From Phoronis australis (Eukaryota; Animalia; Phoronida), in the NCBI GenBank assembly GCA_002633005.1, contig NMRA01000314.1:220898-284897 (forward strand): 64,000 bases of DNA. Direction: 5' to 3'. Positions 790 through 38,500 of the stretch are shown piece after piece. Below the pieces are notes generated by a model. It was given only the letters and a program-made list of their open reading frames with translations. It ran no database searches and was not told where the DNA came from. The translations under genes and the position numbers were made by a program. Each line of letters begins with the position of its first letter. The first letter of the stretch is position 1.

Positions 790-3700
790 TAATGGCAGAA
801 TTACTCCAGAATGAGGCAACTTAACCTCTGACCTCTGTCTCGGTTAGAGCACATGCTGTAGTAGATTATATTTTACCTGACCCAACTAATTTGAATGATT
901 GTGTATCGTTTTCTGTATCTAATACTTCTGATATTTTGATACTTAGATATCCACGCTTTGATTGGGCCAAGATGTAAAGCGCCAGATTATTCTCTTCTTG
1001 TTCTAAGGTTCAAAATCTCCTCGCTTGGTTTATGTTTACCTGGTATCGACAACCATTGGATTCAAATACTCTTTCTAAAAAACGGAAAAATGACACATGC
1101 AATATCCTGGCAGAATTTAGTAATAATGTGACATTTAATGAAGAAACTTAGTGTTTAATTGATTCATTATTGTTATCCTATGAACATCAGAACCAACTTG
1201 ATATAGTGTATCAGTCATTTATGGACTTATTAATTAAGGACATTGATTCCGTGCTGGATTACAAGGATTATTATCCGAGTCGTAAACTAAGGAAGTATTC
1301 TAACAGGAATCATCGTTATTGAAATTTGGAACTTAACGATTCTTGGAAAATTTCAAAGTACATTGAATTGGTTACATTACAAACAATTATTTCTGTCTGA
1401 TCAATGTAAATTTGCGCGAAACGTTAATACCAGTTGAAGGATCGTGTTGAAACTGAAAATATAAATCTTGAAAATCCTAAGGATTTCAGGGCATGTATAT
1501 TAAAAAACTAGGACCATAATAGTTTAGCAAAGTTCCCCTGGAAGTCTTGGTTTCAAACCCTAATATAAACTTTGATAGAAATTTTGTTCTAAGTAAATGG
1601 AAAAATGATTACGGAAAATTATTTGTACGCAGTTCTGAAAATACATTATTTGATGATGAATTTTATTTGGAACCTTGCATTTGCGTAAGCAGAATGTGAT
1701 TGTACTAATATAATTGATCAAAGCTTAAATTGTGAAAATCTCTGTTGATGAGGTTGGAAATGTTGTTATAAACAAAGAATAACGAAGCCATGACTGCCTA
1801 CCTTAAGAGGTTTTAATATTCAAAACTATTGTTTTACTAACCCGACTGTTAATTGAATCTTTTAAACGTGGGCTAATGCCTTCTGACTGGTATAAGGCAC
1901 TTATAATCCTCACGCTGTATTAATTCTGCACACGACTCTAGAATTCCTTTGAACTACCGTGGGATACAGTAGTCTTCTCTCAATATTTGTAAACTCTTCA
2001 GTGTTGTGTAGAATAATAGAACTGTGGGTTTTTGTGAACAGAACAATACTTTAGTTGACGAGCAAAATGGTTTTCAAAGCCGACGGTCCTGTGTTGATCA
2101 TTTATATGTCCTGTCATCAATTATTCAAATAAGTAAGTCGTCTAACCTTTCTACATTTGTGGACATGAAAAAAGCATGGACAAACCGTGAACTTCTGTTT
2201 TATAAATCACTCCAANCTAGTTTAATACAGAAAAGATAAGTACCGAGGGTAAGTCCGAGCCATGCCAGCGTAGATGCACTATAAACATCCAATAAAGCCT
2301 GCTGAGACTTGCTATAATCAAATCCCTGTTACTGAGATAACAAAAAAAAGAAAAAACCGGTAAAAGCAATAAGGCGCTGGCATTAACATCTAACATTGGC
2401 CAATGCGAATACTTAGATAGTGACTAAATACAAAGTACTGGGATATAGTTACGCTGTAAATTTTCTCCATGGTTCTTCCTTGCTTTTCCGTACCTCCAAC
2501 CAAATCATATCAGGAGCTTCCTTGATGCGAGTGAACATCTTTTGCTGCTTTCTCAAATCTTAGGCAACGTGTGCCAGCTCTCCTCTCTTCTTATGGACTT
2601 ATTAATTAAGGACATTGATTCCGTGCTGGATTACAAGGATTATTATCCGAGTCGTAAACTAAGGAAGTATTCTAAAAGGAATCATCGTTACTGAAATTTG
2701 GAACTTAACGATTCTTGGAAAATTTTAAAGTACATTGAATTGGTTACATTACAAACAATTATTTCTGTCTGATCAATGCAAATTTGCGCGAAACGTTAAT
2801 ACCAGTTGAAGGATCGTGTTGAAACTGAAAATATAAATCTTGAAAATCCTAAGGATTTCTGGGCATATATATTAAAAAACTAGGACCATAATAGTTTAGC
2901 AAAGTTTCCCTGGAAGTCTTGGATTCAAACACTAATATAAACTTTGATAGAAATTTTGTTCTAAGTAAATGGAAAAATGATTACGGAAAATTATTTCTAC
3001 GCAGTTCTGAAAATACATTGATGATGAATTTTATTTGGAACCTTGCATTTGCGTAAGCAGAATGTGATTGTACTAATATAATTGATCAAAGCTTAAATTG
3101 TGAAAATCTCTGTTGATGATGTTGGAAATGTTGTTATAAACAAAGAATAACGAAGCCATAACTGCCTACCTTAAGAGGTTTTAATATTCAAAACTATTGT
3201 TTTACTAACCCGACTGTTAATTGAATCTTTTAAACGTGGGCTAATGCCTTCTGACTGGTATAAGGCACTTATAATCCTCACGCTGTATAAATTCTGCACA
3301 CGACTCTAGAATTCCTTTGAACTACCGTGGGATACAGTAGTCTTCTCTCAATATTTGTAAACTCTTCAGTGTTGTGTAGAATAATAGAACTGTGGGTTTT
3401 TGTGAACAGAACAATACTTTAGTTGACGAGCAAAATGGTTTTCAAAGCCGACGGTCCTGTGTTGATCATTTATATGTCCTGTCATCAATTATTCAAACAA
3501 GTAAGTCGTCTAACCTTTCTACACTTGTGGACATGAAAAAAGCATGGACAAACCGTGAACTTCTGTTTTATAAATCACTCCAAAATGATATAAATGGTAG
3601 AAGGTACTATGCAATTCGCATGGTTTACAGAAATCCATTGAACTGTATCGGATTAAATGGCACTTTGTATAGTGGTTGGTTCACTCCTAAAAACGGGCGT

Positions 3701-4260
3701 TTTATCACCGACACTTTTTGCCTTATACGTTGAATTAGCTCTGGAAATTAAAAAAAAACTGGGTAAAGGTGTCAAATGTGGTCCAAACAATATTTCAGTT
3801 CTTCTTTACGACGACGATATTGCACTTCTGTCTGAAAATGAAAATGACATGCAAGATTTGTTGAAGGTTTTAAACAACTGGTGTACAAGTGGTGTTAATA
3901 TGGCAATAAATAACGTTGTCCATTTTTGAGCTAAGTCCGCCATGCCTAGAAGCAAATTTGAATTTATTTTAAATAGTGTCGTTGATTATAAATTCTCATA
4001 CAAATACTGGATCAACACCTTGACTTAAAGAGAATTTGAATAGGTTATCTGAGGCTTCTGGTAGAGCGTTAGGAAAGGTACGCTCAACAGTTCGTGAACA
4101 TGAACTGAGGATTCGAAACATTTTTAAAAAACATTTAATTCGTGTGTGGCACAAATTTTGGATGATTACGGCTGATCTGTTTGAAGTTACAAAAATTTTG
4201 TTAATGATGAAAATAAGGCAAAACAGAGGGATGCGTTGACTTGGGTCAACCGATTTACAG
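790..4260 (+). mobile_element. Decayed APE-type non-LTR retrotransposon (LINE; CR1/L2/Rex1-like) ORF2 remnant
   Basis: Fragmentary frames give endonuclease C-terminal motifs (NGRIT at ~791, AVVDYI at ~855, PDYS at ~982). They also give RT motifs EQNGFQSRRSCVDH (ORFs 2024 and 3392), GVLSPTLF and ISVLLYDDDIALLSENENDMQ (YADD-equivalent, ORF 3657). Many stops and frameshifts. Confidence 0.85.
1219..3583. repeat. Near-identical ~1-kb direct duplication (1219-2215 and 2591-3583) inside the LINE
   Basis: Both copies start ttatggacttattaattaaggacattgattcc and end tataaatcactccaa. The first copy stops exactly at an N (2216). Confidence 0.9.
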
Positions 4261-5115
4261 CCACTCATGCTGATATAGCGGTGATATGGGGTGGTGCTCG
4301 ACCGGAAACAGAACTGGTTTGAATTGAAATTAGGACCGTGACCACAGACGATGATTATTGAAAACTGTTTCGGTTCATGTCCATCTACTCACGGCAAAAA
4401 TTTACTTAAAAGTTACACACTAGATGTCGCAAATGCTTGCTTAATGTCAACATTACTTGAAGAAATGTATTCCAAGTTCACTCAAGATTCCATGTTCACG
4501 TGCAACAGTATAGTGTCAAAGACTCTACGGTCTCTGATAGTGTGGATTGCCAGGCACGCCGAGAGGTGGCAGCACAGACATGTTTAAAATAGGAGACTGC
4601 AGAGACGGATGCCTGTGCGCTGCGCGTTATGTTTACTCGGTTATCTATATAAGTCTACGATGCCTGCGACTTCCTAGTTCGTAAGCTATAGGCATACCGA
4701 ATATTCTACTGAATAGAAGTTCGCTAAAGTGTATCAGGTAAGCGATGTATCCGTGCTGCGGTCACTGTTTTCGATGTTGACAACAAATTAGGGACAAAGG
4801 TTGGCACGAACATGTCCGTCACTTCGTCAGGGCCGTGGCCCATAGGCATACGGTCACTCGCGCCGATGTTACGTAACAAGCGGTACAAGGCTGTATTGAT
4901 TCGTAAAGTTTACTGAGAAGTATTAAACAACTTCGTCACTTTAAACCATTAAACTAGTTTGACAGCGATTGCAAGCAAAAAGTTGGCAAACCACTGTTTA
5001 CATAGTCCAGCTCTCATGTTCTGTTGTAAACAGCACACCTGATACTAACTAGTTCTTAAAAATACTAGCCAAACAAAGTTGGACAAATGTCGGGAGGAAG
5101 ATGTGTTTTATGAAA

Positions 5116-5336
5116 CATATACGGGCACCCAGCCTTTAATATGGGGGGCTCGAATTTCTGACGATGTGGACCTTTTGCTGACAAAAAAACGGGGTACCAC
5201 CTTCACTGTGCATCTGCGCCTTTTTAGTGGACTTTTGTCTTGTTTTCTAAGACTTTTTGTTTCTGAGGCGGACCTTTTTGCCCACTTGGCCAAATGGGGG
5301 GGTCATTCGACCCCCCCTCGGCTGGGTGCGCGCATG
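5116..5336. mobile_element. MITE family A copy (TIR ~catgcgcgcacccag)
   Basis: Ends cata..cgggcacccag / ctgggtgcgcgcatg, flanked by tgaaa on both sides (5-bp TSD). Homologous to 14067, 15659 and 24649. Confidence 0.75.
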
Positions 5337-5824
5337 TGAAATACTCTCTCCAAAAAACTTCGAATGGAGAAAAATAGTTGAGCTGATTCCTTTGTGGGAC
5401 TGCAGGTTCTGAGTCCCTTACTATAACATTGTTACCAACACAACAGGCTTTTTTGTCAAGTTAAATCGAGCGTGATAGTAGATCAGATCTTGATGTTGGA
5501 AATTTCTTGGTTTTAAGAGCCCAGGGCAATGGTACGTGTCGTAACGCAACGCGTCTGAAAAAGCATCGCAACTCGTCAAAAAAGGTGCAGAGTTGAGTAA
5601 GACATTAATTCCAATATATACGTAAAAGTGCACTCATTTCTATCATTTGTTTTATTTAGCATTATCAATGGGATTGGGAAACTTAGCTCAGTCCTTCCAT
5701 CAGTGTTAGTACAGCAAGTAACGCATTGAACAAAATGAAGTACTAATATATAATTGCAAGTTGTGCTTTTGCTCAAGCGGGTACCATTGTATTAATTTTT
5801 TTTTTCACCTTCAAGGAATTTGTC

Positions 5825-8800
5825 ATGTCGAAACATGCACAATACTCAGTGCCAAACGACAGCTTGGACGAAGTCACGAGTGCCGTTTCGGTCAGTGATG
5901 TTTCTCTGGATTCCATTGTCCAGATTTTCCGCTGCCCAGGCAAACAGTCAGAAGAGACTGGTGAAGATAACAGCATGCAAGTGTGTAGAGAAGATGCCAG
6001 TGGCGAACGAGTGCGACTTCAAAAAAAGGATCAATGTCAAGTTCTTCAGCAGCTGTCGCCTACCGTTCTAGTTGGTACAGGGGACGGCTGCTTCATACAC
6101 CTTGGTGATGTAGAAGGTAGAGTATTCCATATAGTGAACTTGGCACTATATGTGCGTCCTTTTTGTAAGGATGAAAGTAATGCTTAGTTCAAACTATGTA
6201 ATATTACTCTTGCGGAGTATTGGGGCTTCAGCTCAACATTGACCATTGCGTAATTGTCTTTTGTCCTCCTCCTTCTCTCTCAGTGTTGAGGACTGTATTG
6301 GGAAAGTGTTGAGCACTCAATTTCAATGTTGGACAAAGAGAGAATTATGAGTTTCTGAGTTATTCACTAAGGCTTTGATTAAAATTTACATCTTACCAGT
6401 AGCTTATGTTTCTTCATCGTCACTCAGATTGCGTTTTCTTTGAAAAAATGAAGTAGTTTTCTTCATTGCACAGTGGAGCAGACGACAGACACTGAGTGGT
6501 AGTGTGCAGCGCCACTGCCGGTTGGCTGGGATATCACACATATATTGACCAGGAGCGCCATTACTTAGCCATAGTTCCGTTATGATTGCACCGGTGGTCT
6601 GAATCGGACACGTGAAATCGGGCCTGCGCCCCTCCCTCCATCACACGCATACACAAACTAAAACTGCACACGTTGTTAAATCTTGTTTCGGCCGTATAAT
6701 GTTAATTACTGGGGTTAATTAATAAACTCAATATTTCCTCATGCTCTTGCTGTTTTATTTTTTGCAGCAGCCAAAGGGGGCAGGCCCCCTCCCCCTCTAA
6801 ATCCTCCTGTGTGTGTACTAACACAAAAGGCATACTTGACAAGTTTAATCGAGCGTAATTCTAGATTAGATGGTGAAAGTGGACATTTCTGGATTTTTAC
6901 ACTCCAGGATTAATAACATATTGGCTCAAAGTCAAAATTTAAATTTTACAGGGTTTCTGCATTCATAAAACATATATTTTTACTGAGTTAATATTTATAT
7001 TTGGTTAAATACAACCAAAACAACCCCTGCATATCCCTCAATTGATTCAATGTCTTGATGATTCTTCATTCATGCATTTTTGGTTCTCTAATGGCAAAGC
7101 TTAACACTTTTGTTCCCTGTATTTATGCAGAGGTCAAGGTCATCGAGGAACCCCAACACAAGTTAGGCAATAGCGAAGAAGTGGTTTTGTATACTAGGAC
7201 AGAGGATCATCCTAAGCAGCTGGAATCGCCAAAAATGAATCGCGTCTCGTCACATAACTGGCTTGTTGAACGAGCTGAGGGAAGTGAAACTATCAAAATG
7301 TCAGGTATGCTAATACATTGAGGTGCGTGTATAACATTGATGTCATGCGTAACTATAGAAACATTATCAAAGTTTGGCTTACATTGACTTAATTGTCTGT
7401 CAAATCCCAGAAATGGCCAATTGGTTTCAAACACGATTTCAGAAACTAGGATTAAATGTGTTGAACATTGTTAAGAATTGTTTTTAAATGTTTTTTTTTT
7501 CAAATAAGTGTAATAGTGTGGTATCACTTGTACAAATTTTGAGAACCAGTTTTCTCCACTGAATAACAGGCATCAACTGGTTCTCAAAATGCGGCCACGT
7601 TATATCAGATTACTGCTGAATGCATTGCTACCGGAAATCAAGAAAACCAGAATCTTTTAAGCGTGAACACACCAGCAATTGAAATATGCAGCAATATTTT
7701 GAGATGTCATCTTGAATGTTTATACCAAAACAAATGTGGCCATGCACCTCCCACTGTTGTTTTGCTGTGAAAACACTTTCTTTTTTGCGTAATTTTACTT
7801 ATTTAAAAAATGCATCCTGGTGTTAGTCTCTCAGTGGCAATTTATTGCCACTTTGGTTTAATATCATACATTCTGTAACAATGAAGATACAAAAGAGATG
7901 AGCTGTTGTACTGGATTAACTGTCTGCAGGGGGCCCTTTTCCAAACTTAAAGATATGAGCTGTTGTACTGGATTGGCTATCTGCAGGGGGCCCTTTTCCA
8001 AACTTAAACGTCTGTCTGGATAAGGTTTGCTCAAAGATATGATAATAATTTTTATGCTTTCCAAAAAGAATTGGAATTTAGAATTTGGTACATTTTTTTG
8101 TACATTCGTTTGTTTGGTGAACCTCTAGTTACAAATTTAGTTGTTCTTGATTGTTCTTCTTTTAACTTTGTTATTTTCAATGTTTCAGAAGTAAAAGATA
8201 TTCAACTTATCGTGACAGAGCCGATGGTAGAGGAATCAGACTCAGGAGAACCAATTTGCAAGATTAGACAGTCTACACTTGATATAAAACTGAATCCAAC
8301 TGCTGATGCTGTTGATCTCAAGAGTTTGGACAAAACAGGTTATTTATTCTAACAGCAGATATTGGATAATTACACTTGCAAGGGCTGATAACCGAATAGG
8401 GGTGTGACATCGATGTCTTTACATGTCACCTAGTTTTATTCAATATTGAATTGATTTTGTTTGCTGAGTAAAAAAATTATAGGTTCTGGTTTTTGGCAAT
8501 AATAGTCACTGTGTAAATGTTAGCGTTTTCCAAGATGGTCACACAATAGTTGAAAAGGTTGGCAAAATGCATCGATCTGATTGTAAAAGTGCTGTTTCCC
8601 TTCAATTAGGTGCTGAGAGTAGTTACACAAAGTCATCCAACGGAGACAGCGATGACCAGCCAGGGTCACCAGAAGGTAGTTACATGATGCCATCCCATGG
8701 AGGCAGTAATGGTCAGACAGGGACACAAGAAGGTAGTCAACATTTCCTGTGTCACACTTTGTTCAATTTCGACATTGTCCATTTTATAATGAAAATTTCT

Positions 8801-11800
8801 GTGTACTGTTTTGCTGGTATCACACGAGTAAGAATTTTTCACTTTTCAAACAAAGAGTAACATTAATTTTCTAGTATTCTTGAAAAATTTTGGTGACATG
8901 TATCTACACTATCTCTTTTTGTCCTAAGTTATCAGGTAATGGCTTCTAAAGTGATTTAAAACAGAATTAATATTGAAGATTACGTCATTGGTTCCTGAAA
9001 GTGCCTTTCCCAATCACAAACTACAACTGCACTCACAAGGCTGTGTAACAGCCTATTGAAGAAACCGTGCTCTGGTTTGTTTACGTTATAAGTTGATGTT
9101 TCTTTCAAGGCGATGAACTTGTTCAACTGGATCAGAGGGAGATGGAGCTGGCGACATCACTTAGGAAACGTGCGGAGTTGGAAGGAGGGACAAAGTCATG
9201 TGGTGACATTTTGCGAGAAATGGGCAACATTCACAAAAGAAGGGGATTGCTAACAACACACACACAGTGGTTTGTGACTGCATCGGCGCTGTATAACGCG
9301 GCGTTGATGAGAACTGAAGAACCAGAGTTGATTAAGAATCTGGAGACGTTAATTAGACAAAATGAAATAGCTTTTTGCGAGACTCTGTCACTCCCAACTA
9401 CTAAGCTACCGATATATTTCAAGTGTGAGGTAAAAGAAAAGTTAGAAAGCATGAGACGTCGTGTTTCACCAAATGCAGAGTGTCTGTTGAATACTTTTGC
9501 TAAAGAACTCAGTTTAGAAGCAGCTGACACTGTCAGAATGCAAGTGGAAAAAGTGTTCGTTGATGACACCTTGAGGATGTTCAAGGAAGTTTGTTCAGAT
9601 TTGAAATCTTTTGACCAATACCTCATCTCAAAAAGTAAGGACATTTTAGGCCAGCCCCCTCAAGAGTACACAGCCATTGCCATGGGTTCTTTGGCAAGGG
9701 GTGAGGCAACACCGTATTCAGATCTTGAATGGGCAATTCTGGTACAAGATGACAGTGAGGATTTAGAGTATTTCAGAAACATGACCAGGCTGGTGCAGAT
9801 ATTTGTCTTAAACATTGGAGAAACTTATCTTAGAACACTGAGCATAAAGTCACTGAATGATTATGACACGCCTGGAGGCAATTGGTTCGTGGATGACGTT
9901 GTGTCACGTGGGTTTGAGTTTGACAGTGCTGCCCCCTATGCATGCAAAACCCCACTAGGTCGTCCTGATGCGCATGGGAGACCAGGCATCGAACTGATTA
10001 GGACGCCCGAACATATGGCAGAAATATGTGAAATAAACACCGCTATTAGGGAAGGTTACCTATTCGATCGTGTTCTTACGACGACAGTCAAAATTGATGG
10101 CAGCGACTCACTATTTGAGAGATTCACTTTCCTAAAAACAGGTCATAAACTTGATATAGCTGTGCAAGTTAAGGCGTATTATGAAATTCAAGACCTTGTA
10201 AAAAAGTTCTGGCCGAAACTCAGTTTCCACAGTGAGGTTGCTGGGGCACATGATATTAAACAAGAACTGTTCAGGTTACCCACCGTAGTTATCAGTCTGT
10301 TCAAAACATTATTTAGTTTGGACAACGACAATACATGGGACTTGCTGGATGAAATGAGGTCAAAGGGTCAAGCAACACAGCATGGTGCACACAACTTAAA
10401 AGTCATCATTTCCATTGTATCTCTAATGAGGCTTGTCATGTACTGCACCAAGGGACAGCAGAGCGAATTATTGAACTTGCTGCCCAGGTCAACTTCAAAA
10501 CCAGGAAACAGCTTAACAGCAGAGAAAACACTGCCGTACAGCAAGTACAGGAATTTGATTAAAAGGTACTACTATTCGATCTATCCCTTTATCAATTATT
10601 TGAAGGATATTAAGTTCCTTCTTTTGTTGTTCCTACAGAAACTGGATTCCAATTTTTACGAAGTCAGTGGCTTTTTTGAAGGTTGCATTGAATACTGCTC
10701 GTTTCAATACAGCAAAGCCAGAGACAAATTGCTTTCTCACTTTGCCCTATGCGAGAAATTACTGAGTTCCATCGAAAACAACGGTGACACTGTTTCAAGT
10801 GACTCCGAAGACTCGGCATTTAAAACAGCAGTTGACTGTCTGTACATAGCAGGGAAGACTTACATGATGGAAGAACAGTATGTCCATGCTCTGAAATATT
10901 TCACTGATGCTTTGAAAATGGTCGTTTCACATGGTGAGCTTAGATACAAAGCATCCGCTGCTTTGGTCGAAAAGAATGTCAGCAGAGAAACACACGACCT
11001 GCTGTTCAAAGCGTTTGATGATGACTATCAAATGAATATTGCTATGCTAAAAGCTGAAATTGGAAATGCCAACACACATCTGAAGAATTGGAAACTAGCA
11101 CTAGCGTGCTATCAAGAAGCTCTCGACATCATGACAAGGTTGGACGAGGAAGAGCACAGGAAAGTTATAGCGTTGCTTTTCAACGATATTGGTATGGTGT
11201 ATTGTGCTTTTGCCAAATATGAACTGGCGTTGGAAAACTGTCACAAGTCACTTAATTTGCTGACGATTACCCACGGAGACACTGGTCAGCACAAGGAGAC
11301 GGGAGTCGAAAACTCAACTCACGGTAGTGTTGACCATTATGATATTGCTTTTTGCTTGCAATGCATCGGGGACGTGTATGGCGACATAGGTAAGTACCAG
11401 ACAGCCTTGCAATACTCTGTGGACGCTCTGGATATGCTGAAAAGGATTTACGGTGACGCTGATAATCTTTCAACTGTAGGGTGTTTACAAAGAGTTGGGG
11501 AAGCTCACAATGCTATTGGTCATTATGAGTTAGCCCTACAGTTCTACGAAGACTCGTATAGTATGTTGGTGAGACTGCTGGGTGGTGTGGAACTTCCATG
11601 CATTGCATCGAAACTGCAGGTCATGGCGCGCGTTTTATGCGAAATGGGAAAACACGAGAGAGCTTTGGAGAACTGCAGAGAATGTCTGTATCTTGTGAAG
11701 AGGCTATACTCTGACCAAGACCATTGTAATGTTGCGTTGACTTTACAGACCACAGGCCGTGTCTATTTTGAGTCAAATTTACACGAGCTAGCTTTGCAGC

Positions 11801-13536
11801 ATTTTCGTGAAGCGTATGGTGTGCTGAAACGGATTCACGGCAATGGGGATGATACTGGTATTGTATCAGTTGCAAATGACATTGGAAGTGTGTATTGCGC
11901 AACAATGACTTACCAGTTAGCATTAGAACAGTACCACAGCGCACTTGGCATGGCGAAAAGGATTTACGGTGATGGAGACGCTTTGATCGTTGCGTTTACT
12001 TTACACAACATTGCGAAAGTCCATCATAGATTAAATGAGCACAAAGTAGCATTACGTCACTACAGAGATTCTTTGAGTATGAGAAGAAGAATTTATATGG
12101 AGGGAGACCACCCAAGTATTGCCAAGGTGTTACTACACATTGGAGATGTCTACTGTGACATGACAAAACCCAATGTAGCATTGGAATATTACCAAGACGG
12201 GTTAACCATGATGAAAAGAATATTTGGTGATGTTGACCATCCAGATATAGCCTCCTCTTTGAATTGTGTTGGGATGGCTTGTTTCGCCTTGGGAGAGTAT
12301 GATGCGGCCATGCAATACTATGAAAAATCGTTGGCAATGGGAAAAGCTATAGATGGCGAACAAGGCAATCCTAACACTGCCACATGTTTGAATAACATGG
12401 CAAATGTCTGTGATGCTGCCTGTCAGTACGAGTTAGCTTTGCAATACCACAAGGAATCACTTCACACATTGCAAATTATTTACGGACAGAACGACTTTCC
12501 TGAAATTTCGACATGTTTGAAAAATGTTGGGTGTGATTACGTAAAGTTGGGTCAATACGATTTAGCCTTACAATACTATCAAAACTCTTTGGACATGAAA
12601 TTGAGAATGTATGGACAGGCCGCTAACATTGATATAGCGTCCATCTTGGGAGATATTGGAGTGGTTTATAATGATATGGGTGAGCTAAGGTTGGCACTGC
12701 AGTTTAAATTGAAGTCTTTGAAAATGATGAAGGAGCTGTGTGGTGACCATCCAAATGTTGCTGATGCCTGCTGTAACATTGGATGGCTGTACAAAGACAT
12801 CGGGATGTATGAAAAGGCAATGGTTCACTATTTTGAATATCTCGATATTATAAAGAGACTTTATGGAAACGGGGATAGTCTTGACATGGCTAATTTTCTT
12901 AACAACGCTGGTGAGGTTTATCTCAGAATGGGTAAGTTGGATGAAGCACGTGATTATTGTAGGCGGTCTTTGGACATGTTCAGGCAGTTGTTTGGTTTGG
13001 TTGATCACACTAGCATTGCTGAGACTCTAGGAAACCTGGGACTTGCCCATGGCAAGCTTGGTTTAGAAACGGGGTTGCAAACGTGCTTGGAGTCGCTAGA
13101 AATGTTTAAGAGATTGCTTGGTTGTTGTGACCACATGGACATTGCCTCATCTCTGAAGAATGTAGGCGTGTGCTACAAGTTAATGGGAGACACCGACTCG
13201 GCTCTACAACACTGTAAGGATGCGTTGGAAATGAGAAGGAGGTTAGATAAAGATGGTGGTCACCAGTACACTGCTGACATCTTGAGGGAACTTGGAGCAC
13301 TGTATTTGAGTAAGGGCGACACAGACATGGCGCTACGACATTACTTGAAAGCTATTGAGATGAGAGAGCGACTTGGATGTAACGGTGACAACGAAGATAA
13401 CGCTGCGATGCTGAGTGAAGTGAGCGAGGTGTACATGCGGACCGGTGATAGCGGATTAAGTGATGACTATTTGGAGAATTCGAAGAAAATGTTAGCTAGA
13501 TTATCGTCGCCAGTAGATGATACCGAGCCAAAATAG
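5825..13536 (+). CDS. Nucleotidyltransferase (GlnD/DUF294-like, Pol-beta superfamily) plus ~20x TPR repeat protein, ~1721 aa; exons 5825-6116, 7131-7304, 8189-8338, 8610-8732, 9110-13536
   Basis: Four GT-AG introns, all phase 1, join into one open frame (292+174+150+123+4427=5166 nt). Motif AMGSLARGEATPYSDLEWAILV begins at ~9679. About 20 repeats of ~44 aa of the type DIASSLNCVGMACFALGEYDAAMQYYEKSLAM run from ~10828 to 13490. The upstream exons are supported only by splice sites and phase; the large exon is certain. Confidence 0.8.
7537..7590. mobile_element. Small hairpin MITE core, with a second inverted copy at ~62721-62775
   Basis: ttttgagaaccagtt...aactggttctcaaaa palindrome. The same sequence occurs in reverse orientation in a Trio intron. 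Confidence 0.6.
9110..13536 (+). CDS. Giant terminal exon of the NTase-TPR gene (ORF 9142-13536)
   Basis: Uninterrupted 1464-aa ORF preceded by the acceptor tttctttcaag|GC, in frame with upstream phase-1 exons. Confidence 0.92.
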
Positions 13537-14066
13537 CTCGCGTTGTTGAAGACACGTGAATTTGTGGAGATTTTATCTTTTGGCGCGTTCAATGGGTACG
13601 CTGATGCCGTATCTGGAAACTGGGCCTGAATTTTATTGTAAAAAGTTGTTAAATGCTTTAGATACTATGCTTTGTGTTCGCTTTTATAACGGACAATGAT
13701 CATGGTGAAGTTATACATTGCATGCACATGTGCTCTGGAGTTATGTGAAGGGAATGTTGTTTTCGTTTTTGTTTAAAATGGTTGTTCGCTTTACTGAATC
13801 CTGTCGTTTTTCGCTATTTGCACATCCTAAACACGGGTTAGTTATTCGGGATTCATAAACTCTGTTACATTTTAAATCTATTCACAACTCTTATTTGCAT
13901 GAGAACTGCATGGTTTCAAAATTTAGTTTAAGAAATTTCATTTCTAGTCTCTTTCTAATTTCTTTGACGGAGCGCGAGTTTATACCGTAGCCTGTTTATA
14001 TGTAAAATAAAACTACAACAATTCTCATTTCATTGTATCACTACTCGCGTGCACTATACACATCAT

Positions 14067-14237
14067 CATGCGCGCACCCAGGGGGGCTCGCCGGGGGGGC
14101 TCGAACGAGTCCCCCATTTAGCGAAGTAGGCAAAAAGGTCCGCCTCCGAGAAACCAAAAGTCCGAGAGAATGAGACAAAAGTCCACTAAACAAGCACAAA
14201 CGCGCAATTCACAGTGGTGCCCCCGTTTTTTTTTTTA
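14067..14237. mobile_element. MITE family A, truncated, opposite orientation
   Basis: catgcgcgcacccagggggg...aaaaggtccgcctccgagaaaccaaaag is the reverse complement of the 5116 and 15659 copies. Confidence 0.65.
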
Positions 14238-15658
14238 TGATCATTTGCCTATATTGACCAACCGTTTTGTTCACACGGGTCAGTACACTTTGAGGCGCGG
14301 GGTGTCTCTTGTATACTAACAAGTGGATGTAATTATTGTTTTAACACGTCACCGTGTTAGTCAAAGAAAGTTCACGCCCGAGTACTGTTGGTACTGATAC
14401 GTCAAATTTTATTTAACACCAGTTCTCTCATTAGCTAGCAATAAATATCGTATATTCTCAGAGATTTTGTACTTTTGCCCATGTGAGATTAAGTTATTTT
14501 TCTGACTTGTGTGGAACCTTAGACCAAATTTCAGACTTAATCTTGAGAGTCAATTTCACGAAACGAACCCCAGTATCTAATCCACTGAGCTACTGTCCAG
14601 TAGTTAACATGGGCAGCAGTAAGACACTGACGAAGCGTCGACATCGCGATGTATGGATTCCCCATCTTCGAAGGTAAATTTGTCCATTGTTAAGGAACAA
14701 AACGTGATAAAAGCGTACGAAAACAATACGCTACAGGAATGAGTGCCCACGCGTTTTTAGACTTTAAATATGAAAGAAAGCCGCAGATGTTTTGACGACG
14801 TTGTGTCTTTAATTAGTAAGAACATATGCAACGAGTACATCTTTATAAAATGTACGAACACCGTGCCATCTGCAAACGTCATCGGTGTGGCGTACGGCTC
14901 GAGCCATTTTGCAAATTTTGACGTTGACGAAGGATTCGACCTACGGTTAAATAGATGCGGGTGCCTACTGCGGTTGCATGCGGCGTTGACTTAGTTTCTT
15001 TGTGGAGTTAGGCCTACTATCAAAAATTGCTCCGTGCTATTGAGACGTGTTCGGAAAATTGACTTCCACATTCCATTGTTGTGCACTGTTTTTGAATGAA
15101 AAATCGTGGAAGCGTATTCTCAGAAGCTACGATTTATTTAATTTTGTCAAGAATCAGTTTTCAGCTGAAATTTAAGTCCAAATGATGCCCGTTCAACACA
15201 ATTCCAAATATTTTAACTTTCTTTTTATTGTGGTGCACCATAAACTAAAATGGCCGTCGTAGTAAGTGACAGCGGACTCACATGGGTACTCACTCAACTG
15301 CCGTCACATGTACTGAGGTTTCCGCTGAATCTCCAGTCACTTCTTTAAAAAATATTCAAAAATCAATATGAAAATTTATATTTTAATGGTTCGACTGACG
15401 AAACTCGCCCCGTATTCAAAACGGGTGAGTGTGACGTAGAGAGTGTCTTGAATGTCACTACGCAAGTGTGTCTATTTGCGCATATGGTAGCTACTCCTCT
15501 GATTTTGTACGGCATGTAAGTACATTGGATAAGACTGTTGTTTTAGGCGGCATTCAACAACTGCTACTTTTGGCTTGAAAAACCAGGTCTTGGCAACTCC
15601 AGCAGTTTGTTCTATGGCAGGGTAGAAACATCTGAAAATATGAACACTATACGTAGTG

Positions 15659-15908
15659 CATGAACGCACCCTGCCTTCAATATGGGGGGCTCGAATTTCT
15701 GTCGATGATGTGGACCTTTCGCTGACAAAATATCGGCAGGACTAAAAAAAAAACGGGGTACTACATTCAAAACTGTAAACTGTGCGTCTGCGTCTTTTTA
15801 GTGGACTTTTGCCTCGTTTTCTCGGAGTTTTTGTTTCTCTGAGGCGGACCTTTTTGCCCACTTCGCCAAATGGGGGAGCTCGAACGAGCCCCCCTGGGTG
15901 CGGGCATG
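15659..15908. mobile_element. MITE family A copy
   Basis: catgaacgcaccctg...ctgggtgcgggcatg, with internal sequence shared with the 5116 copy. Confidence 0.75.
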
Positions 15909-17164
15909 GTACTGGGCCAAAGACTTCAGAAACGTTGCACAAAGTCTACTCGGTGAGACTGATTCCAAAGTCAAGTTTCCATCTTTTACCGTGACGACAA
16001 CCGGAAGTCTAGCGCCCTGTAAGTTGAAGAGAACTAACTACGTAACAAACGAAACACTTGTTGCTGTGATCGAGCAGTTACTAATGGCCGTCAGAACGAA
16101 AGAGAGCGCGACAAACACAAGAGCGCAATAATATCTGGCGGACTGGCGCCGACAATTTAAAAAACGAACAAAAATACACCAAATCGTCAGTTTTCACTTC
16201 AATTAAGTTACCATTTGCGTGTGATTATTAGGAGCTGAGAGACAGTGCATTGTCCAAACATCTCCAGATTATGGAAACCGGACAAAAATGGTTTACGAGA
16301 AGCCATTTTTTTACAAATACTGACTGTCTGAGGGATACTTGAATTTCAGTTTCAATTTCCCGCTTGTAAGGCAGTAAAGTTTTAATAAAAGCCACGAGTG
16401 AGCACTAAGCAATTCAACAAGGGCAATCTTTCTCTCAGACCAAACTAAAAAATCAAGCCAAATGTAATTTGTAGCCTTCACATGCAGCACAAGACTTAGG
16501 CCCAATGAAATCAGCAAGAGTCATTTTTTCTATTTAAATTCAACTCTGGCTCAAAGAACTATTGAGTTCCACCACGTACGGTGCCACCTACTAACCTCGC
16601 GCCACCTGGTAGTGAAGTTTGAGATTCTAAACGATTTGCCGAGTGTTATCATTATTGTGGCACTTTATCGAACAATCAGCCATTCGCTCATCACAGGACC
16701 CACTCAGTGGACTTTATCACCAAGATTTTAATGGCGGTCAAGTGAATAAGACGCCGCCTGGATAATACTAGATGTCGCCCCTGGACAGGGCTCACTGACA
16801 ATTTGTGCCCTGTTTCTACTTGCGTCCTGACGCGGCCTGAGTGGAATTACTGTAGTCTCTCTGATGACTTGCGACGTGGTGGATCACGGTAACCTGTAGA
16901 AGACATATAAACGCTGTGAGCTGAATCTTTAGCGTGCTGCTATATGGTTCTGTAGCCTTACACACTGCTATGGTGCCAGTTTTATTCCAAGTCGACTGTC
17001 GGTGCCTTTCTGTTGATCTGTTCAGTTAATGTCTATCAAGAACTGACATAACGCGCTGGTGTTCTCGTCGTCAAATTGCACCCGTACTCGTAAAAGCCTT
17101 TTCTATATCACACTTTGATTGCCGCCAGGGTCACGGTCAGTCGGGTACGCTCAGAACCGATATC

Positions 17165-20100
17165 ATGTCAGGAAGAAATCGTCTGTCATATGACTCGGAT
17201 TCAGACGATGATGAAGAAAAAGACTTGTTGTCAAACAGTATCAACTCCAAACTCGCCCGCTCAGATCGGGATTCCAGTGATTACGAACCCGCTGATGGAA
17301 AACCTCATGTGTACAAGCGTCGATGGTACATGCTGTTAGTCGTGTCCCTGATGATTGCACTTGAGGCGGGTACGCATATCAGCTAACTGTTCTGTTTCAG
17401 TGCCCCCCACCCGCCCTTGTCAACGGTCAGAAACGTAATTTGTTATCACGGTTATTACCATTTTTGTTGTTGTTATAACTTATTTCTGAGAATAAAAATG
17501 AATGATCTCCAATATATATACATCAAAGATTGTCGAGGATACCCGTAAAATTTTGGTTGTCCGAAAAGCCCTCATTCATAAACTGTCCTGACGTAGATTC
17601 AATGTCCCTAAACTACTGATTCCGCATTGTATTCTTAGAATTTTTGTTGTATGTTTACACCACCGTTTGTTCATCCTCTTGGATGAAGGAGTTAAGAGAG
17701 GAGTAGGCCTAATGATATGGTCGGTCATAATTATCTTGTTCTGCTGTAGTAGTCTCTATTTCGAGGGATAAAGTTGTATGTTGCTATTTTTTCGTATTAT
17801 TTATACTACCAAGATATTTTATCAATAGATAAACAGTCACCATGATTAATTGCTTGTAATGTATATGCCTTTTTGTCGTCATTTTTAAAATACTCTGCTT
17901 TATCCGTTTCGAAGTGATATGGAACACGTGGTCTCCGATATCCAGCTCAGCGCAAGCAGTGTTCGGGTGGAGTGATGGCATCATTGCGTTGCTTAGCAAC
18001 TGGGCTGCAATTGCTGCCATTTGTGTGATGGTTGGGTTCTCTTGGCTTCTTGACTCCTACGGTTTGTGAATACGTGACTAACTCAGAGGGTGGAAACGAT
18101 TCAATAGCCACGCCAAATTCTACACCATGAACCAGATCCAGTATGGATTTGTTCCCCGGTAAAAACATGCGGAATATTTTCTGCGCCCCACAGGGGTTGT
18201 TGTGCAACTTGCACTGAGGGTTTGGCCCGGGTCTGGAGTGAAGGGGATTGAAGTTGGGGCGGCCATGGAATCGTTTCTAGAGTAAAGAAGTTTTGAAACC
18301 GGAGGTACTCCCACTCATTATTATGATATAGACATGTTCGCATGACGCTCAATATTGACTATTGGTTCAAGTTTATTTTTGAGGAAAATAGCCTACACTT
18401 GTCTGAAGCTTAATTGTAACCAGCCAATCATGCTGCATTAGGAAACAAGCCACAACAACAAATGACGGTGCGCTCATCATCGTCGTTCAACATACACTGT
18501 ACTCAGTATTTTCGAAACTAGAGATCTTGGCTGCTCTTTGACCACTTAACTTTTATTTGCGGAACAAAACTTGGTTTGGTAATGCCTAGCTGAAAATCTG
18601 TCGTTATGACAACACGAACAAATCTGAATGCCTAGTTCCTGCTGAACAATGCCTAGCTCCTGCAATTTCAAGTCAAACGATTTTCACCTGTAGGGTTGCG
18701 AGTAACGTGTATTCTAACCGCCTTTCTGACAGCGGCAGGCTCAGCTCTCAGGTGCATTACGTCGCAACCCCCTGCCTGTACGTGGTAAGTTATCTTTTCC
18801 AAAATGTTGCTTTTAAATAACTGTCAAAGCTTGAGTGTAGAATCACGATGGAAAATCATTTCATCGTACTTGAAAGTCTGCAGTTGTTTTCCGTCAAATG
18901 CCGGTTCAGTTATTTAAATTGACAATAAAACTCCACAATAGCCTAATCCCGATTTTGGCCATCGAAAAGAAGTTTTGATGCAGACCGCGTTCCATTATAA
19001 AATTGGTCTCAAAATCCTTCTTACTCAGATGAATAATGACTTCTGAGCTAAAAAAAATGACAGTTCAGTCAGACGACATTAATTGACAAGCTTTGACGCC
19101 ACCTTATCGAGCCGGAGGTCGAACAGTAGCTATTCGTCCCAAGCCCAGAAATATTCTCTGATCGGAGTAAATTCATTTGGGGGCCTGTTTCGGGAGAATT
19201 ACCATGTATTGTGTGGCTGCCACCCGCGTGGGACTTCAGGAGAATCACCATGTATTGCACTTACCACCTGTGTGACTTCAAATCACCATGTATTGCTTGA
19301 CTACCACCTGTGTTACTTCAAATTACCATGTTAGTGACTACAACTTTTGCGACTTCAAATTGCCATGCATTGAATACAACGTGTGTGACTTCAAATCACC
19401 ATGTATTAATTGTTTGACTACATGTACCACCTGTGTGACTTCAAATTACCATTCATTGTTTGGGTACCACCCGTGTGACTTCAAATTATCATGCATTGTT
19501 TGAGTACCACCTGTGTGACTTCAAATTACCATGTTTGACTACCACCTGTGTGACTTCAAATTACCATGCATTGTTTGAGTACCACCTGTGTGACTTCAAA
19601 TTACCATGTTTGACTACCACCCGTGTGACTTCAAATTACCATGTTTGACTACCACCCGTGTGACTTCAAATTACCATGTTTGACTACCACCCGTATGTGT
19701 TCAAATTACCATGCATTGTTTGAGTACCACCTGTGTGACTTCAAATCACCTATTTGACTACTTGTGACTTCAGATTACCACGTATTGTTTGACTATCACT
19801 TGTGTGACTTCCCGTGCTCCAAATCCGTCCTTTCAGTGAAATTCAACTTTGCAGGCTCATAAACATTGGTCATGTGATGAATGGAATGGCTTCTGTCATG
19901 GCTGGCGCAGGTTGTAGTCAATTTTCAGCCGTGTGGTTCCCGAATTATCAGCGAGCCACGTCCACCGCTATAGCTCTCAGCTCTTTCAATGTGGGAACAG
20001 CATTGTCTTTTGTAGCCGGTAAGTATTATGAATGGATCCGTGACCGTAAATATAACACTATGGATGGCTGGACGTTGTTGGACAACTGAAGACATGAGAA

Positions 20101-35578: not shown

Positions 35579-38500
35579 ATGGGATTTGAGGTGAATCGTT
35601 TCCAAGGTGATGTTGACGAAGAGTTACTCTGCCCCATCTGTAGTGGTGTATTTGAAGAACCAGTCCAGGTACTGTGCTGTTTAGTTTCAGTTTTCCTAAT
35701 TTTTTGTCAAGTGTGGAAGCTATTCCTTAGCCATATTTCTAAATTCCACTGACAACAAATTGGTCAAGAGGTTTGTGGCTGGAATTTAGAGGTGCGTCCA
35801 TGTAATCTGTTTCCACCCCCTGGGTTGGCTTTAGCAGTTGATCGCATTTGCCTATGCAGTTGTGATTTGTTTTACAGTAATTGTTTTTTAGCATTCTAAG
35901 TGTTTTGCTGTTTGTGCTGTTTTCTTTTTGTCAATGCCCATGATGGCATGAGCGTCCCCTATCAATTCCCACATACTGCATGCATTTCTTCCTCATTTGC
36001 TGAGTTAGAAGATCGCATTCATTGATTAACCTTGTTTTTGAAATTGAGGGCAGCTAACCCACTTGTGACTTGAGCCAGACTGGTTTTTCAAATTTTTGAC
36101 ATCTGCATTACAACTCACATGAGAGAAGGCATTGTGGCCTAGTGTGGTAGGCGCCCGCTTTCTTTACTCGAGGTTGTGGGTTTGAGTTTCGCTGAGCCAC
36201 ACTGCTACACCCTTGAGTCAGGTTTCTAGCTCCTCAGTTTGGTTTTAACTATATATTAAAACATAAAAATGATTTCAGGTGATCAGTGCAATGGGCCCAC
36301 ATGCGTGGCCTGCGCACGTCTGGTACAACGTGTACCAGACTACCTGCAATTATTTTTTATACAACTCTAATGTCATTAGCATCCTTGTTACATCACAGCC
36401 TACAACTAAATGTATTGCAGGCAATAGCATCCTTGTTATATCACAGCATACAACTAAATGTATTGAAGGCATTAGCATCCTGGTTACATCCACAGGCGTC
36501 CTCAGCTTCTGATCGTCCCCAATACAGTAAACTAGTGTATTGGGGACGATCAGAAGCTGAGGACGCCTGTGGTTACATCAGTGTATACAACTAAATGTAT
36601 TGCAGGCTCCTCAGTGTGAGCATGCCTTCTGCAAGGAGTGTATCCATGAGTGGTTGACACGACAACCCACGTGCCCAGTTGATCGCCAGACAATCACACC
36701 CAACCAGTTAAAGCCAGTCCCTCGCATCCTCCGCAACCTATTGTGTCGTCTCTACCTGGCCTGCGATAACGCCTCCTATGGGTGTACAGCCATCATCAAG
36801 TTAGATCTTTTACCACAACATTTACAGGTAAGTGAAGATTAATAGATTAATAGTGGGCGACCAGTGGGAACGCCGCCTAACCACATAGGTTTAGGCAAAG
36901 AATCTTGTGTCACTATGAAAAATGGCGGTGACCACATGGAAGCTGTCATTGCAGTTTTGCTAGGTTAACAAAAGCATTACTACATATACTTCCAAAATTC
37001 CCTCAAACGGGGAAAATTAATCCTCCTTTGTGACAGTGGGCCTGTAGAAGGTCTCAAAGCAATGCATCAAACTTTTTGTTGCAGTTTGTCATAAATTTCA
37101 AACATGGCATTTGTAAGAGCCCTGTAACCTTCAGTAACTATTTTGAGCAGATTGAAAAATGGCTGTCCGATAGTTGAAAGTTCTTCTCGCTTCGATTTTT
37201 CCTTTCAAAGTTTCAGTCACAGCATAAAACGTTTGTCGTCGCCAGCCACCTAAAACATTTGTATGCATTGGTTCGCGTTAAAAGCAACCTAATCAGACAT
37301 TGTTGAAATTGTTTTTTTGTGAAAAATTGATCATCATGATCAACATGACTAGATAGCCATATATTTGAGTCCAGCACCTTAACCACTACACCACGGAGTC
37401 ATCCATTTACTTAGAGGGCATTTTATTATACTTAAACCTTCCTAAGTAGACTGAGCCAGGTGTCACTTGGTTGTTTGCGTGGCTGACTGAAAAGTCATGA
37501 AAATATTGCATCAGCAGCTTTTTCTGATGAATTTTGTAAACTGCCATGTCTATTTTCAGACTCTGTTGATGCAAAATACATTGCCTGATACTTGAGAAAT
37601 ATGACAAACGCCAAAATCGCCAATGTCCTAATCTTAGCAACCAAGAAAATTCAATTTTGTCTTGAATTTTGGTGTCCCAACTTTTAGAGACTGTCGCAAA
37701 TTGGAGAACTTTTTTCTGTAAGCAATGCGACAATCTGGACTGTTGTGTTATAGGAGTGTGAACACAACCCCAAAAAGCCAGTGATGTGCGACCAAGGCTG
37801 TGGAATGGTCATTCCCAAGGATGAGTTCAAGGTAATTATTGTGATGCTTGTTGTAGTCTTGATTCTGTAGGATTAAATTACAACAAAATTACCTAAAGGA
37901 ATGACAATATCCGATTGTTTTGTCCAACTGTGTTATGGGTAGTGAAACAAAAAAGCTGTAATGCAGAAGTTTCAAGTAGACAATAGCGCCATCTCTTTTA
38001 CAAACAAGAAACAAAATAACTAGAAAAAAGAGAATCTTCATTAATCTTCTGAACAGCATTAATTTTGACAATTGACAGTTGTTACGGGAACAAATGTGAT
38101 GATCAGTATTCTTTGTCAATAACATCGATAACATCCTTGTTTACTGTATGCTAGAGTACATCAAAGAAGAAATACACAAACGTGTTATTGTTATCACCTG
38201 TCTGTCTGTGCTCGATAATCAGTCCATCGCAGGACCACAAACGTGTGCTTGAACAAGTTTTTCAACTAGGTCTTTGTAATTTGGCCATAGTTTTACTGTA
38301 TTTTTGGCAACGTACCTAGCTAGTATCTCCCAAATATTGAGTAAGCTTTGCATTGCAGGACCACAACTGTGTGCGTGAACTTCGCCAGCTTGTTCAACAA
38401 CAACAGTGTAAGATGGCGGAGATGCAGGCCGAACTCTGCGATCACAAGTTGGCACTCAACGAACAGAAACGAGAAATACAATTACTCAAGGTAAGGATGG

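Follow-up and report, generated by a model that had tools for sequence, protein, structure and literature searches.

The locus described here, from the phoronid Phoronis australis, raises the question of what an animal would do with a nucleotidyltransferase that is followed by about 20 TPRs. In the window, which is the whole stretch of 64,000 nucleotides analysed, the sole ORF longer than 170 aa lies at positions 9142-13536 of the forward strand and encodes 1464 aa without internal stops, as a sequence-only reading had claimed. Position 9110, from which that reading started the feature, is a splice acceptor, and the ATG of the ORF lies at 9142. Four predicted upstream coding exons, all in phase 1 with AG/GT ends and open frames, fuse in frame with the exon 9110..13536 (+): exon 1 (5816..6116, +; ATG at 5825; stranded RNA depth of 1.3 in its bin, one of three runs), exon 2 (7131..7304, +; predicted from the letters only), exon 3 (8189..8338, +; stranded depth 0.4-0.6, two of three runs) and exon 4 (8610..8732, +; 0.4-1.1, two of three runs). 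The ORF is therefore likely to be only part of the full protein, and the long terminal coding exon, which contains the entire enzyme-TPR module and bears stranded reads along its length in all three RNA runs, probably ends a gene of five exons that encodes 1721 aa. As none of the predicted junctions is among the RNA read joints listed at this depth, the five-exon model stands on sequence. A candidate polyadenylation signal AATAAA is located at 14006..14011 (+), and stranded RNA depth persists through the bin ending at 13957. The predicted N-terminal extension of 257 aa is rich in Ser, Glu and Asp, and has no recognised domain or convincing match in Pfam or the Atlas; a RHIM-like reading of exon 1 was dropped because neither of them supported it.

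The 4.4-kb module is intronless, and in bacteria its homologues belong to symbionts, as would be expected of a dead horizontal insertion or of symbiont DNA that mis-assembly had placed in an animal scaffold. We regard such an origin as extremely improbable. The GC content of the ORF resembles that of its flanks, its DNA depth is 6.8-11.3 compared to 7.2-8.5 in the unique flanks, and one contig links the upstream intron to the ORF, although the DNA run behind the depth and the contig may be the assembly's own source. Moreover, the ORF is transcribed at a low level from the correct strand in three of three RNA runs, which come from a study separate from the DNA run, and is preceded by the four in-phase exons. 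The neighbouring genes are animal genes of RNF41 and Trio type, and in a phylogenetic tree the Phoronis protein groups with bilaterian homologues on a branch of 1.71, with a top identity of 35% to any row. No paralogue of the ORF was found within the 64-kb window and no Rfam match in 4000-16000; PADLOC gave motif-level matches only.

The ORF starts with a TPR/MIT-like helical bundle (residues 1-85; 9142..9396, +), whose modelled helices (2-81) match TPR and MIT structures with Z of 8-10 and whose columns are conserved in animal homologues, in line with the TPR-like N-terminal helices noticed earlier. Long lead-in helices and a Pol-beta nucleotidyltransferase core follow (residues 93-334; 9418..10143, +), as indicated by Pfam, the structural model and structure searches. 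Pfam DUF294 covers residues 161-219 (E 7e-7, 29.6 bits against a curated cut-off of 21), and SidM_N matches with E 8e-4, under its cut-off; MntA, ANT(4') and LnuF are weak profile matches, and the GlnD profile is far under its cut-off. The motif GSLARGEATPYSDLEWAIL, noted in the sequence-only reading, occupies residues 182-200 and contains the superfamily pattern G-x11-[DE]-x-[DE] as G182-S183-x10-D194-x-E196 (9685..9729, +), aligned with G98-S99...D110-x-D112 of DrrA. Across homologous domains, G182 is conserved in 282/282, S183 in 281/282, and both D194 and E196 in 280/282. The candidate third catalytic carboxylate, D261 (9922..9924, +), is present in 277 of 278 filled rows and in all 20 rows of a smaller alignment, and E227 is likewise near-invariant.

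The core is connected to a helical, putatively substrate-binding domain (residues 337-494; 10150..10623, +), which matches the DrrA structure and carries conserved K373 (263/269 homologous domains), R378 and R430. The sequence-only reading had recognised this domain, in which HDIKQELFRLP begins at 10249, as a HEPN-like bundle; the bundle holds, and its type can be refined. Since residues 337-500 lack the HEPN RNase motif R-x4-6-H, the bundle belongs to the non-RNase GlnD/GlnE/DUF294_C/DrrA type. Profile searches of the ORF gave no NACHT or NB-ARC ATPase, and neither the ORF nor the four upstream exons has a Pfam match to F-box or OTU. HD, ACT, cNMP, CBS and a second nucleotidyltransferase are also missing; one nucleotidyltransferase domain plus TPRs account for the ORF. 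No hydrophobic window in the protein exceeds 1.49.

The enzyme module was modelled confidently (pLDDT 92.1, pTM 0.92), and a Foldseek search with the model returned DrrA (PDB 6yx5) first, with E 1.6e-7, followed by three GlnE chains, these being the sole four matches at E<=0.001. VIA-align gave a Z of 23.6 and an rmsd of 3.7 over 320 residues for DrrA, compared to a Z of 18.2 for GlnE, and the helical domain alone superimposes on residues 209-342 of DrrA (PDB 3l0i) with a Z of 10.8 and an rmsd of 2.4 over 127 residues. In addition, a family profile searched against 177,635 PDB sequences placed DrrA on top with E 1.5e-6, covering both subdomains. Among the matches listed in two fold searches, the GlnE/DrrA class leads by a wide margin and no cGAS, OAS or Mab-21 structure appears, an absence that by itself does not discount that class. 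The module is thus predicted to adopt a DrrA-like Pol-beta nucleotidyltransferase fold of the GlnE/DUF294 class; the fold class of the earlier GlnD/GlnE/DUF294 assignment stands with its catalytic residues intact, and GlnD gives way to DrrA/SidM as the nearer relative. According to the weaker structure rows, however, antibiotic modification and the synthesis of nucleotide products also occur within this fold class, which tells against the choice of protein AMPylation.

DrrA/SidM, a Legionella effector (PDB 6yx5, 3nku and 3l0i), shares with the Phoronis protein the lead-in helices, the nucleotidyltransferase core, the helical domain and a near-identical GS...SD-x-[DE] motif of its N-terminal AMPylase. 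They differ in that DrrA continues into GEF and P4M domains, whereas the Phoronis protein, animal-encoded and only ~15% identical, is TPR throughout after residue 560. Similarly, GS adenylyltransferase GlnE and PII uridylyltransferase GlnD share the fold of nucleotidyltransferase plus helical domain, but the Phoronis protein has one nucleotidyltransferase and none of HD, ACT, cNMP or CBS. Both DrrA and GlnE AMPylate proteins, and Rab1 binding switches DrrA on allosterically. As the closest characterised relative is DrrA/SidM and not GlnD, the comparison points to protein AMPylation more than to a nucleotide signal.

Such a signal is what an NLR-like or cGAS-like sensor would release, with ligand binding to the TPRs freeing the enzyme to make a diffusible nucleotide instead of tagging a protein. 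The repeat-plus-enzyme layout is compatible with this idea, in oyster, TPRs are described as following Mab-21/cGAS domains, no activity could be sourced for the bacterial DUF294 proteins that are nearest in Pfam, and HalB with bound oligodeoxyadenylate is a weak structure match (E 0.43). Nevertheless, all four significant structure matches are protein nucleotidylyltransferases, with DrrA leading the next family by 5 Z units, and we consider the sensor improbable. Still less probable is an enzyme acting on RNA or small molecules, such as tRNA ends, antibiotics or toxins, or cleaving RNA through its HEPN-like domain. KNTase (Z 8.4) and an AMPylated HEPN toxin (Z 7.7) are found by structure, as MntA, ANT(4') and LnuF are by profile, but they score far beneath DrrA and GlnE, R-x4-6-H is absent, and an array of 20 repeats suits protein partners.

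The TPR array (residues 561-1460; 10822..13521, +), defined by Pfam and by a profile of the protein's own repeats, is of the kinesin-light-chain/NPHP3 type. From residue 561 onwards, the profile detects 19 TPRs, each 42-43 aa long; one more was found by eye at 1418-1460, and the resulting 20 agree with the ~20 units counted previously. Sixteen of the repeats have a mean identity of 28% and a maximum of 51%, compared to medians of 51-54% in the amphioxus and Neochlamydia expansions, and groove position 9 is the most variable position among them. The repeats are thus old and diverged, and together with the absence of a paralogue in the window and a DNA depth equal to that of the unique flanks they make the Phoronis copy look old and settled, which tells against a conflict role for it.

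Homologues were found in both invertebrates and intracellular bacteria, in support of the earlier interpretation. The animal ones come from amphioxus, which has many paralogues and accounts for 119 of 120 among the matches listed, and from tunicates, Owenia and octocorals. Bacterial members number 35 loci in 19 genomes (10 named as intracellular lineages and 0 as free-living); the identifiable ones, from Neochlamydia (NEX2), Rickettsiaceae, Holosporaceae and Amoebophilaceae, are intracellular and often multi-copy, with 1-13 matches in each of five genomes searched, and some carry F-box or OTU domains. A GTDB scan with a single-protein query confirmed 0 of 12 pattern matches, and 0 of 50 viral contigs were confirmed. 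The free tree joins the octocorals to bacteria, but an AU test does not reject a single animal clade (p 0.287), so we claim neither a number nor a direction of transfers.

The enzyme module is homologous to that of a Neochlamydia EPS4 protein, with 30% identity over 397 residues (E 3e-34). NEX2 proteins share the order of DUF294 and C-terminal TPRs and a large paralogue expansion; they are described as F-box, optional OTU, DUF294 and TPR, with an F-box in most of the 50 proteins and OTU in 10 of them (Domman et al. 2014, PMC4209131). They are putative symbiont effectors for which the portions of PMC4209131 available to us report no activity test, whereas the Phoronis gene has predicted introns and lacks F-box and OTU. 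The enzyme-plus-TPR architecture was accordingly already published in 2014 for Neochlamydia, which limits the earlier suggestion of an undescribed system to the animal branch, for which we found no account in the main texts of mostly openly accessible papers.

Sequence variation in this family has to be read from other species, at ~30% identity to the Phoronis protein. Amphioxus homologues keep the catalytic motif and vary only its middle in the alignment, so that its apparent loss in a first motif search was rejected. Their TPR count ranges from 2 to 33 per protein (157 proteins), and of 130 pairs chosen by tail, 124 have a core that is more conserved than the TPR tail. The symbiont family shows the same pattern in 57 of 63 pairs, hence it is not specific to immunity. 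Differences at groove versus outer positions amount to 33% versus 16% in 28 close amphioxus pairs and to 20% versus 22% in 17 Neochlamydia NEX2 pairs, the latter without groove bias; this is not a dN/dS comparison, its pairs are non-independent and its outer set was chosen after the tables were seen. Groove positions also vary most in TPRs in general. A strictly single-copy family, at any rate, is not what we observed, as amphioxus has multiple copies with a variable groove.

Two classes of metazoan AMPylase have been described, FICD/HYPE and SelO (PMC8097203, PMC8065156). FICD resembles the Phoronis protein in coupling TPRs, which select its substrate BiP, to an AMPylase, and would share with it protein AMPylation in animals. 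Both, however, have unrelated folds (Fic and pseudokinase) and are mostly single conserved genes, whereas the present family is patchy, expanded and rich in TPRs. The FICD precedent invites the view that the Phoronis enzyme has been domesticated for housekeeping or signalling, as an AMPylase with TPRs that bring in a single fixed host substrate, with a conflict role only in ancestors or in the amphioxus expansion. Its diverged repeats, long branch, lack of a nearby paralogue, single-copy DNA depth, low expression in all three RNA runs and predicted added exons would all fit. Nevertheless, the family is not conserved one-to-one, the top tree identity is 35% and the groove position 9 varies most among the repeats, so that we find this role unlikely.

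We propose instead, at somewhat short of even confidence, that the protein acts in the cytosol as a DrrA/GlnE-class AMPylase of proteins, that its TPR array selects which protein is bound, and that its family, also present in intracellular bacteria, serves defence in animals. In this best inference, TPRs guide the AMPylation of proteins in a conflict between host and microbes. The TPR groove would capture a specific protein, for instance one made by a microbe or one of the host's own that microbes attack, and would deliver it to the active site, or binding might switch the enzyme on as Rab1 does for DrrA. A nucleotide, likely AMP from ATP, would then be transferred in a Mg-dependent manner onto Tyr, Ser or Thr, and the tag may disable the target or start a response. 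Paralogues would differ in what they bind but share one chemistry. More tentatively, and on balance doubtfully, these enzymes of marine invertebrates might form a third animal AMPylase class derived from or traded with intracellular bacteria, diversified as single-chain immune receptors whose TPR grooves each recognise a different microbial protein and whose DrrA-like enzyme tags that protein or a host switch without a STAND ATPase, with a large repertoire in amphioxus.

The gene would represent a protein-tagging enzyme of a kind new to animals, likely used against microbes. A 2021 review recognised Fic and SelO only as metazoan AMPylase classes, and a 2026 review called host-side AMPylation defences unexplored. 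If true, cnidarians, annelids, tunicates and amphioxus would possess a third class, a DrrA/GlnE-type enzyme that retains its catalytic residues; the amphioxus paralogues, currently labelled KLC1, KLC4 or TTC28, would become a testable enzyme family, and NEX2 proteins would gain a predicted activity, AMPylation. The architecture common to animals and putative effectors of Rickettsiales, Holosporales, Amoebophilaceae and Chlamydiae suggests that symbionts and hosts have exchanged conflict enzymes, and the compact, confidently modelled module makes the key claim cheap to test.

The overall layout also resembles that of fungal NLR-like TPR proteins (Dyrka et al. 2014, PMC4986451), which share an enzyme effector with a TPR array and, as in the amphioxus paralogues, variation in repeat number and a variable surface. 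Compared to them, the Phoronis protein lacks a STAND ATPase, and its maximum repeat identity is 51% against a criterion of 85% (PMC4986451). PMC8195603 mentions the fusion of a 'novel nucleotidyltransferase' to bacterial TRADD-N domains, and its source-data files may list related architectures. The UniRef name for the amphioxus and Owenia homologues is 'Protein-PII uridylyltransferase N-terminal domain'.

The 1464-aa ORF at 9142-13536 (+), the only one longer than 170 aa within the 64-kb window, has an intact reading frame, as the sequence-only reading had described, and the motifs cited in that reading all lie at the positions it gave. Pfam searches revealed that residues 161-219 match DUF294 with a score exceeding the cut-off, in addition to matches with many TPR models, whereas the SidM_N match falls short of its cut-off. 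The GlnD and MntA profiles scored far under theirs. A profile built on the ORF's own repeats defined 19 TPRs of 42-43 aa each and a probable 20th at the ORF end, in agreement with the ~20 first counted.

Residues 1-540 were predicted by AlphaFold2 from 63 sequences, with a pLDDT of 92.1 and a pTM of 0.92. Structural similarity search with the predicted enzyme module using Foldseek yielded only four matches at E<=0.001, namely DrrA/SidM (E 1.6e-7), a Legionella effector with an N-terminal AMPylase domain, and three chains of the GS adenylyltransferase GlnE. VIA-align against 48,161 chains also ranked DrrA top (Z 23.6, rmsd 3.7, 320 residues), followed by both GlnE domains (Z 18.2); in the predicted model, residues 337-494 align with the helical part of DrrA and residues 1-90 with TPR/MIT bundles. 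Moreover, when 177,635 PDB sequences were searched with a family profile of the window module and 19 bacterial homologues, DrrA scored highest (E 1.5e-6), with both subdomains covered. The predicted nucleotidyltransferase fold is that anticipated by the sequence-only reading, whose GlnD/DUF294-type assignment stands as a GlnE/DUF294-type fold, but with DrrA rather than GlnD as the nearest characterized relative.

The catalytic residues of DrrA are G98-S99, D110, D112 and D150 (PMC7815794, in part), of which G98, S99, D110 and D112 correspond to G182, S183, D194 and E196 of the ORF. Among 282 homologous domains, picked by similarity to the query and about 170 of them of amphioxus type, these four are conserved in 282/282, 281/282, 280/282 and 280/282 rows, respectively; D261 is kept in 277/278 and K373 in 263/269 filled rows. 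Judged from this alignment, D261 is a candidate third catalytic carboxylate. We infer that the window protein is very probably an active nucleotidyltransferase, and that it probably acts on proteins. An enzyme acting on RNA or small molecules is a very improbable reading; the RNase motif of HEPN toxins was not found in the helical domain of the module, and the GlnD/GlnE/DUF294_C/DrrA class is likewise without it (excerpt of PMC3710099).

A splice acceptor is located at 9110, preceded by four predicted coding segments (5825-6116, 7131-7304, 8189-8338 and 8610-8732, +) with AG/GT ends, all in phase 1. Joined in frame to the ORF exon, these segments, which were chosen by eye from the sequence without a confirming read junction, give a predicted stop-free protein of 1721 aa; random stretches of their lengths would be open with a chance of 2-12% each. 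RNA reads over the ORF come from a single strand only in all three runs (depth 0-6 per bin, drawn from about 18-19% of each run), and its DNA depth is 6.8-11.3, compared to 7.2-8.5 for the unique flanks. Domain scanning of 65 of the 79 stop-to-stop frames of >=85 aa identified RING finger and USP8_interact exons at 36561-40341 (+), which we take to be an RNF41/Nrdp1-type gene, and RhoGEF, PH, Ig, FN3 and kinase exons at 49506-60753 (-), presumably Trio, with the domain order of Trio/Kalirin, in addition to a weak MFS transporter match at 19808-20089 (+, E 0.002). The RNF41- and Trio-type exons indicate that the host is an animal. Contamination as the source of the ORF is unlikely, and an artefact is barely credible.

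The introns and flanks contain interspersed repeats of high copy number (5108-5461, 6170-6877, 7232-7939 and 13958-14311), over which DNA depth runs into the thousands. A 98% direct duplication of 1 kb (1219-2215 and 2591-3583), which ends at an N (2216) and adjoins a decayed reverse-transcriptase remnant (3657-3929), is possibly an assembly-gap artefact.

One search with the module gave 396 matches, 119 of the best 120 being from Branchiostoma, and clustering at 50% gave 1598 representatives. Organisms are named for 10 of 30 diverse representatives: Owenia (4), Clavelina, Ciona, B. belcheri (3) and Ca. Jidaibacter. Five octocoral proteins came from a second query and the Neochlamydia proteins from a third, so that homologues occur in invertebrates and intracellular bacteria, the two groups in which the sequence-only reading proposed to look. 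In GTDB, one exact motif, which overlooks variants including those of Neochlamydia, marks 35 loci in 19 genomes, ten titled Rickettsiaceae, Holosporaceae or Amoebophilaceae and nine with coarse labels only; five of them have 1, 2, 3, 9 and 13 matches. A very small Cytophagales genome (1.1 Mb) harbors nine intact enzyme-TPR genes with frames of 1600-2400 aa.

The NEX2 family of Neochlamydia comprises 50 proteins with DUF294 and TPR, most of them with an F-box and ten with OTU, which are classed as putative effectors (Domman et al., PMC4209131, in part). The window module shares 30% identity with one NEX2 protein over 397 residues. The Owenia fusiformis protein P0174, encoded on a 42-Mb contig, combines OTU, two DUF294 and TPR; its OTU domain recalls the OTU-bearing NEX2 members, yet it clusters with other Owenia copies. 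Fold and chemistry have precedents in DrrA and GlnE, and NEX2 already has this architecture. Database entries of homologues carry automatic labels such as DUF294 or "PII uridylyltransferase", and no account of the animal family was found in the literature searched: none in the main-text passages covered of PMC8195603, PMC3482391, PMC12894286 and preprints, and no occurrence in a term search of PMC13390645. Of metazoan AMPylases, one review distinguishes just two classes, Fic and SelO (PMC8097203, in part).

In a tree of 35 rows, restricted to named sequences, the bilaterian rows lie together on one side (support 89/78) and the octocoral rows group with bacteria (support 95/82); a single animal clade is not rejected by the AU test (p-AU 0.287), and the query has a long branch (1.71) and an unsure placement. 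The family distribution makes symbiont-animal exchange of the module likely, in either direction and by one or more events. In a fast tree, 12 ENA/Logan proteins (P0187, P0265-P0275) form a clade sister to the octocoral copies (support 0.94).

Among 157 single-enzyme amphioxus paralogues, TPR number varies from 2 to 33, a range that gene-model errors may inflate. Core conservation exceeds tail conservation in 125/129 amphioxus pairs picked by core and 124/130 picked by tail; NEX2, taken as a control, behaves likewise (57/63 pairs), so this pattern is not immunity-specific. The most-changed amphioxus TPR positions are 2, 9, 12, 13 and 31 (37-44%), the first four of which face the ligand groove (PMC1261162, in part). 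Groove changes amount to 393/1179 versus 224/1415 at outer positions in 28 amphioxus pairs, compared to 218/1075 versus 277/1282 in 17 NEX2 pairs, with non-independent pairs and an outer set picked after the tables were seen. Unlike the core-tail contrast, the groove bias is thus specific, being present in amphioxus and absent in NEX2 pairs, and it recalls fungal TPR receptors under diversifying selection (excerpt of PMC4986451). Most amphioxus paralogues (P0002-P0121 and relatives) have GSQAT in place of GSLAR in the motif middle with the carboxylates kept, a swap that may alter nucleotide or substrate preference; many are annotated KLC1, KLC4 or TTC28.

The groove variation is compatible with TPRs as sensor or as substrate selector alike. 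FICD, a TPR-bearing Fic-type animal AMPylase, employs its TPRs for substrate choice (PMC8065156, in part). Quite possibly, and more likely than any of the alternatives, the protein is a cytosolic AMPylase steered by its TPR groove: the DrrA/GlnE-type module would AMPylate protein in the cytosol, and the groove would guide it in host-microbe conflict. A sensor producing a nucleotide signal is improbable. For this copy, a mean likeness among repeats of 28%, compared to 51-54% in the two expansions, and the lack of a paralogue within the 64-kb window disfavor an active arms race; a domesticated enzyme with one fixed host substrate is an unlikely, if serious, alternative to the groove-steered AMPylase. 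RNA reads at 12846-12953 (TPRs 15-16) reveal another haplotype, and a further 269 differences occur over the mapped stretch. Of the five differences listed for TPRs 15-16, a number too small to test for selection, three alter the amino acid, and one lies at groove position 13.
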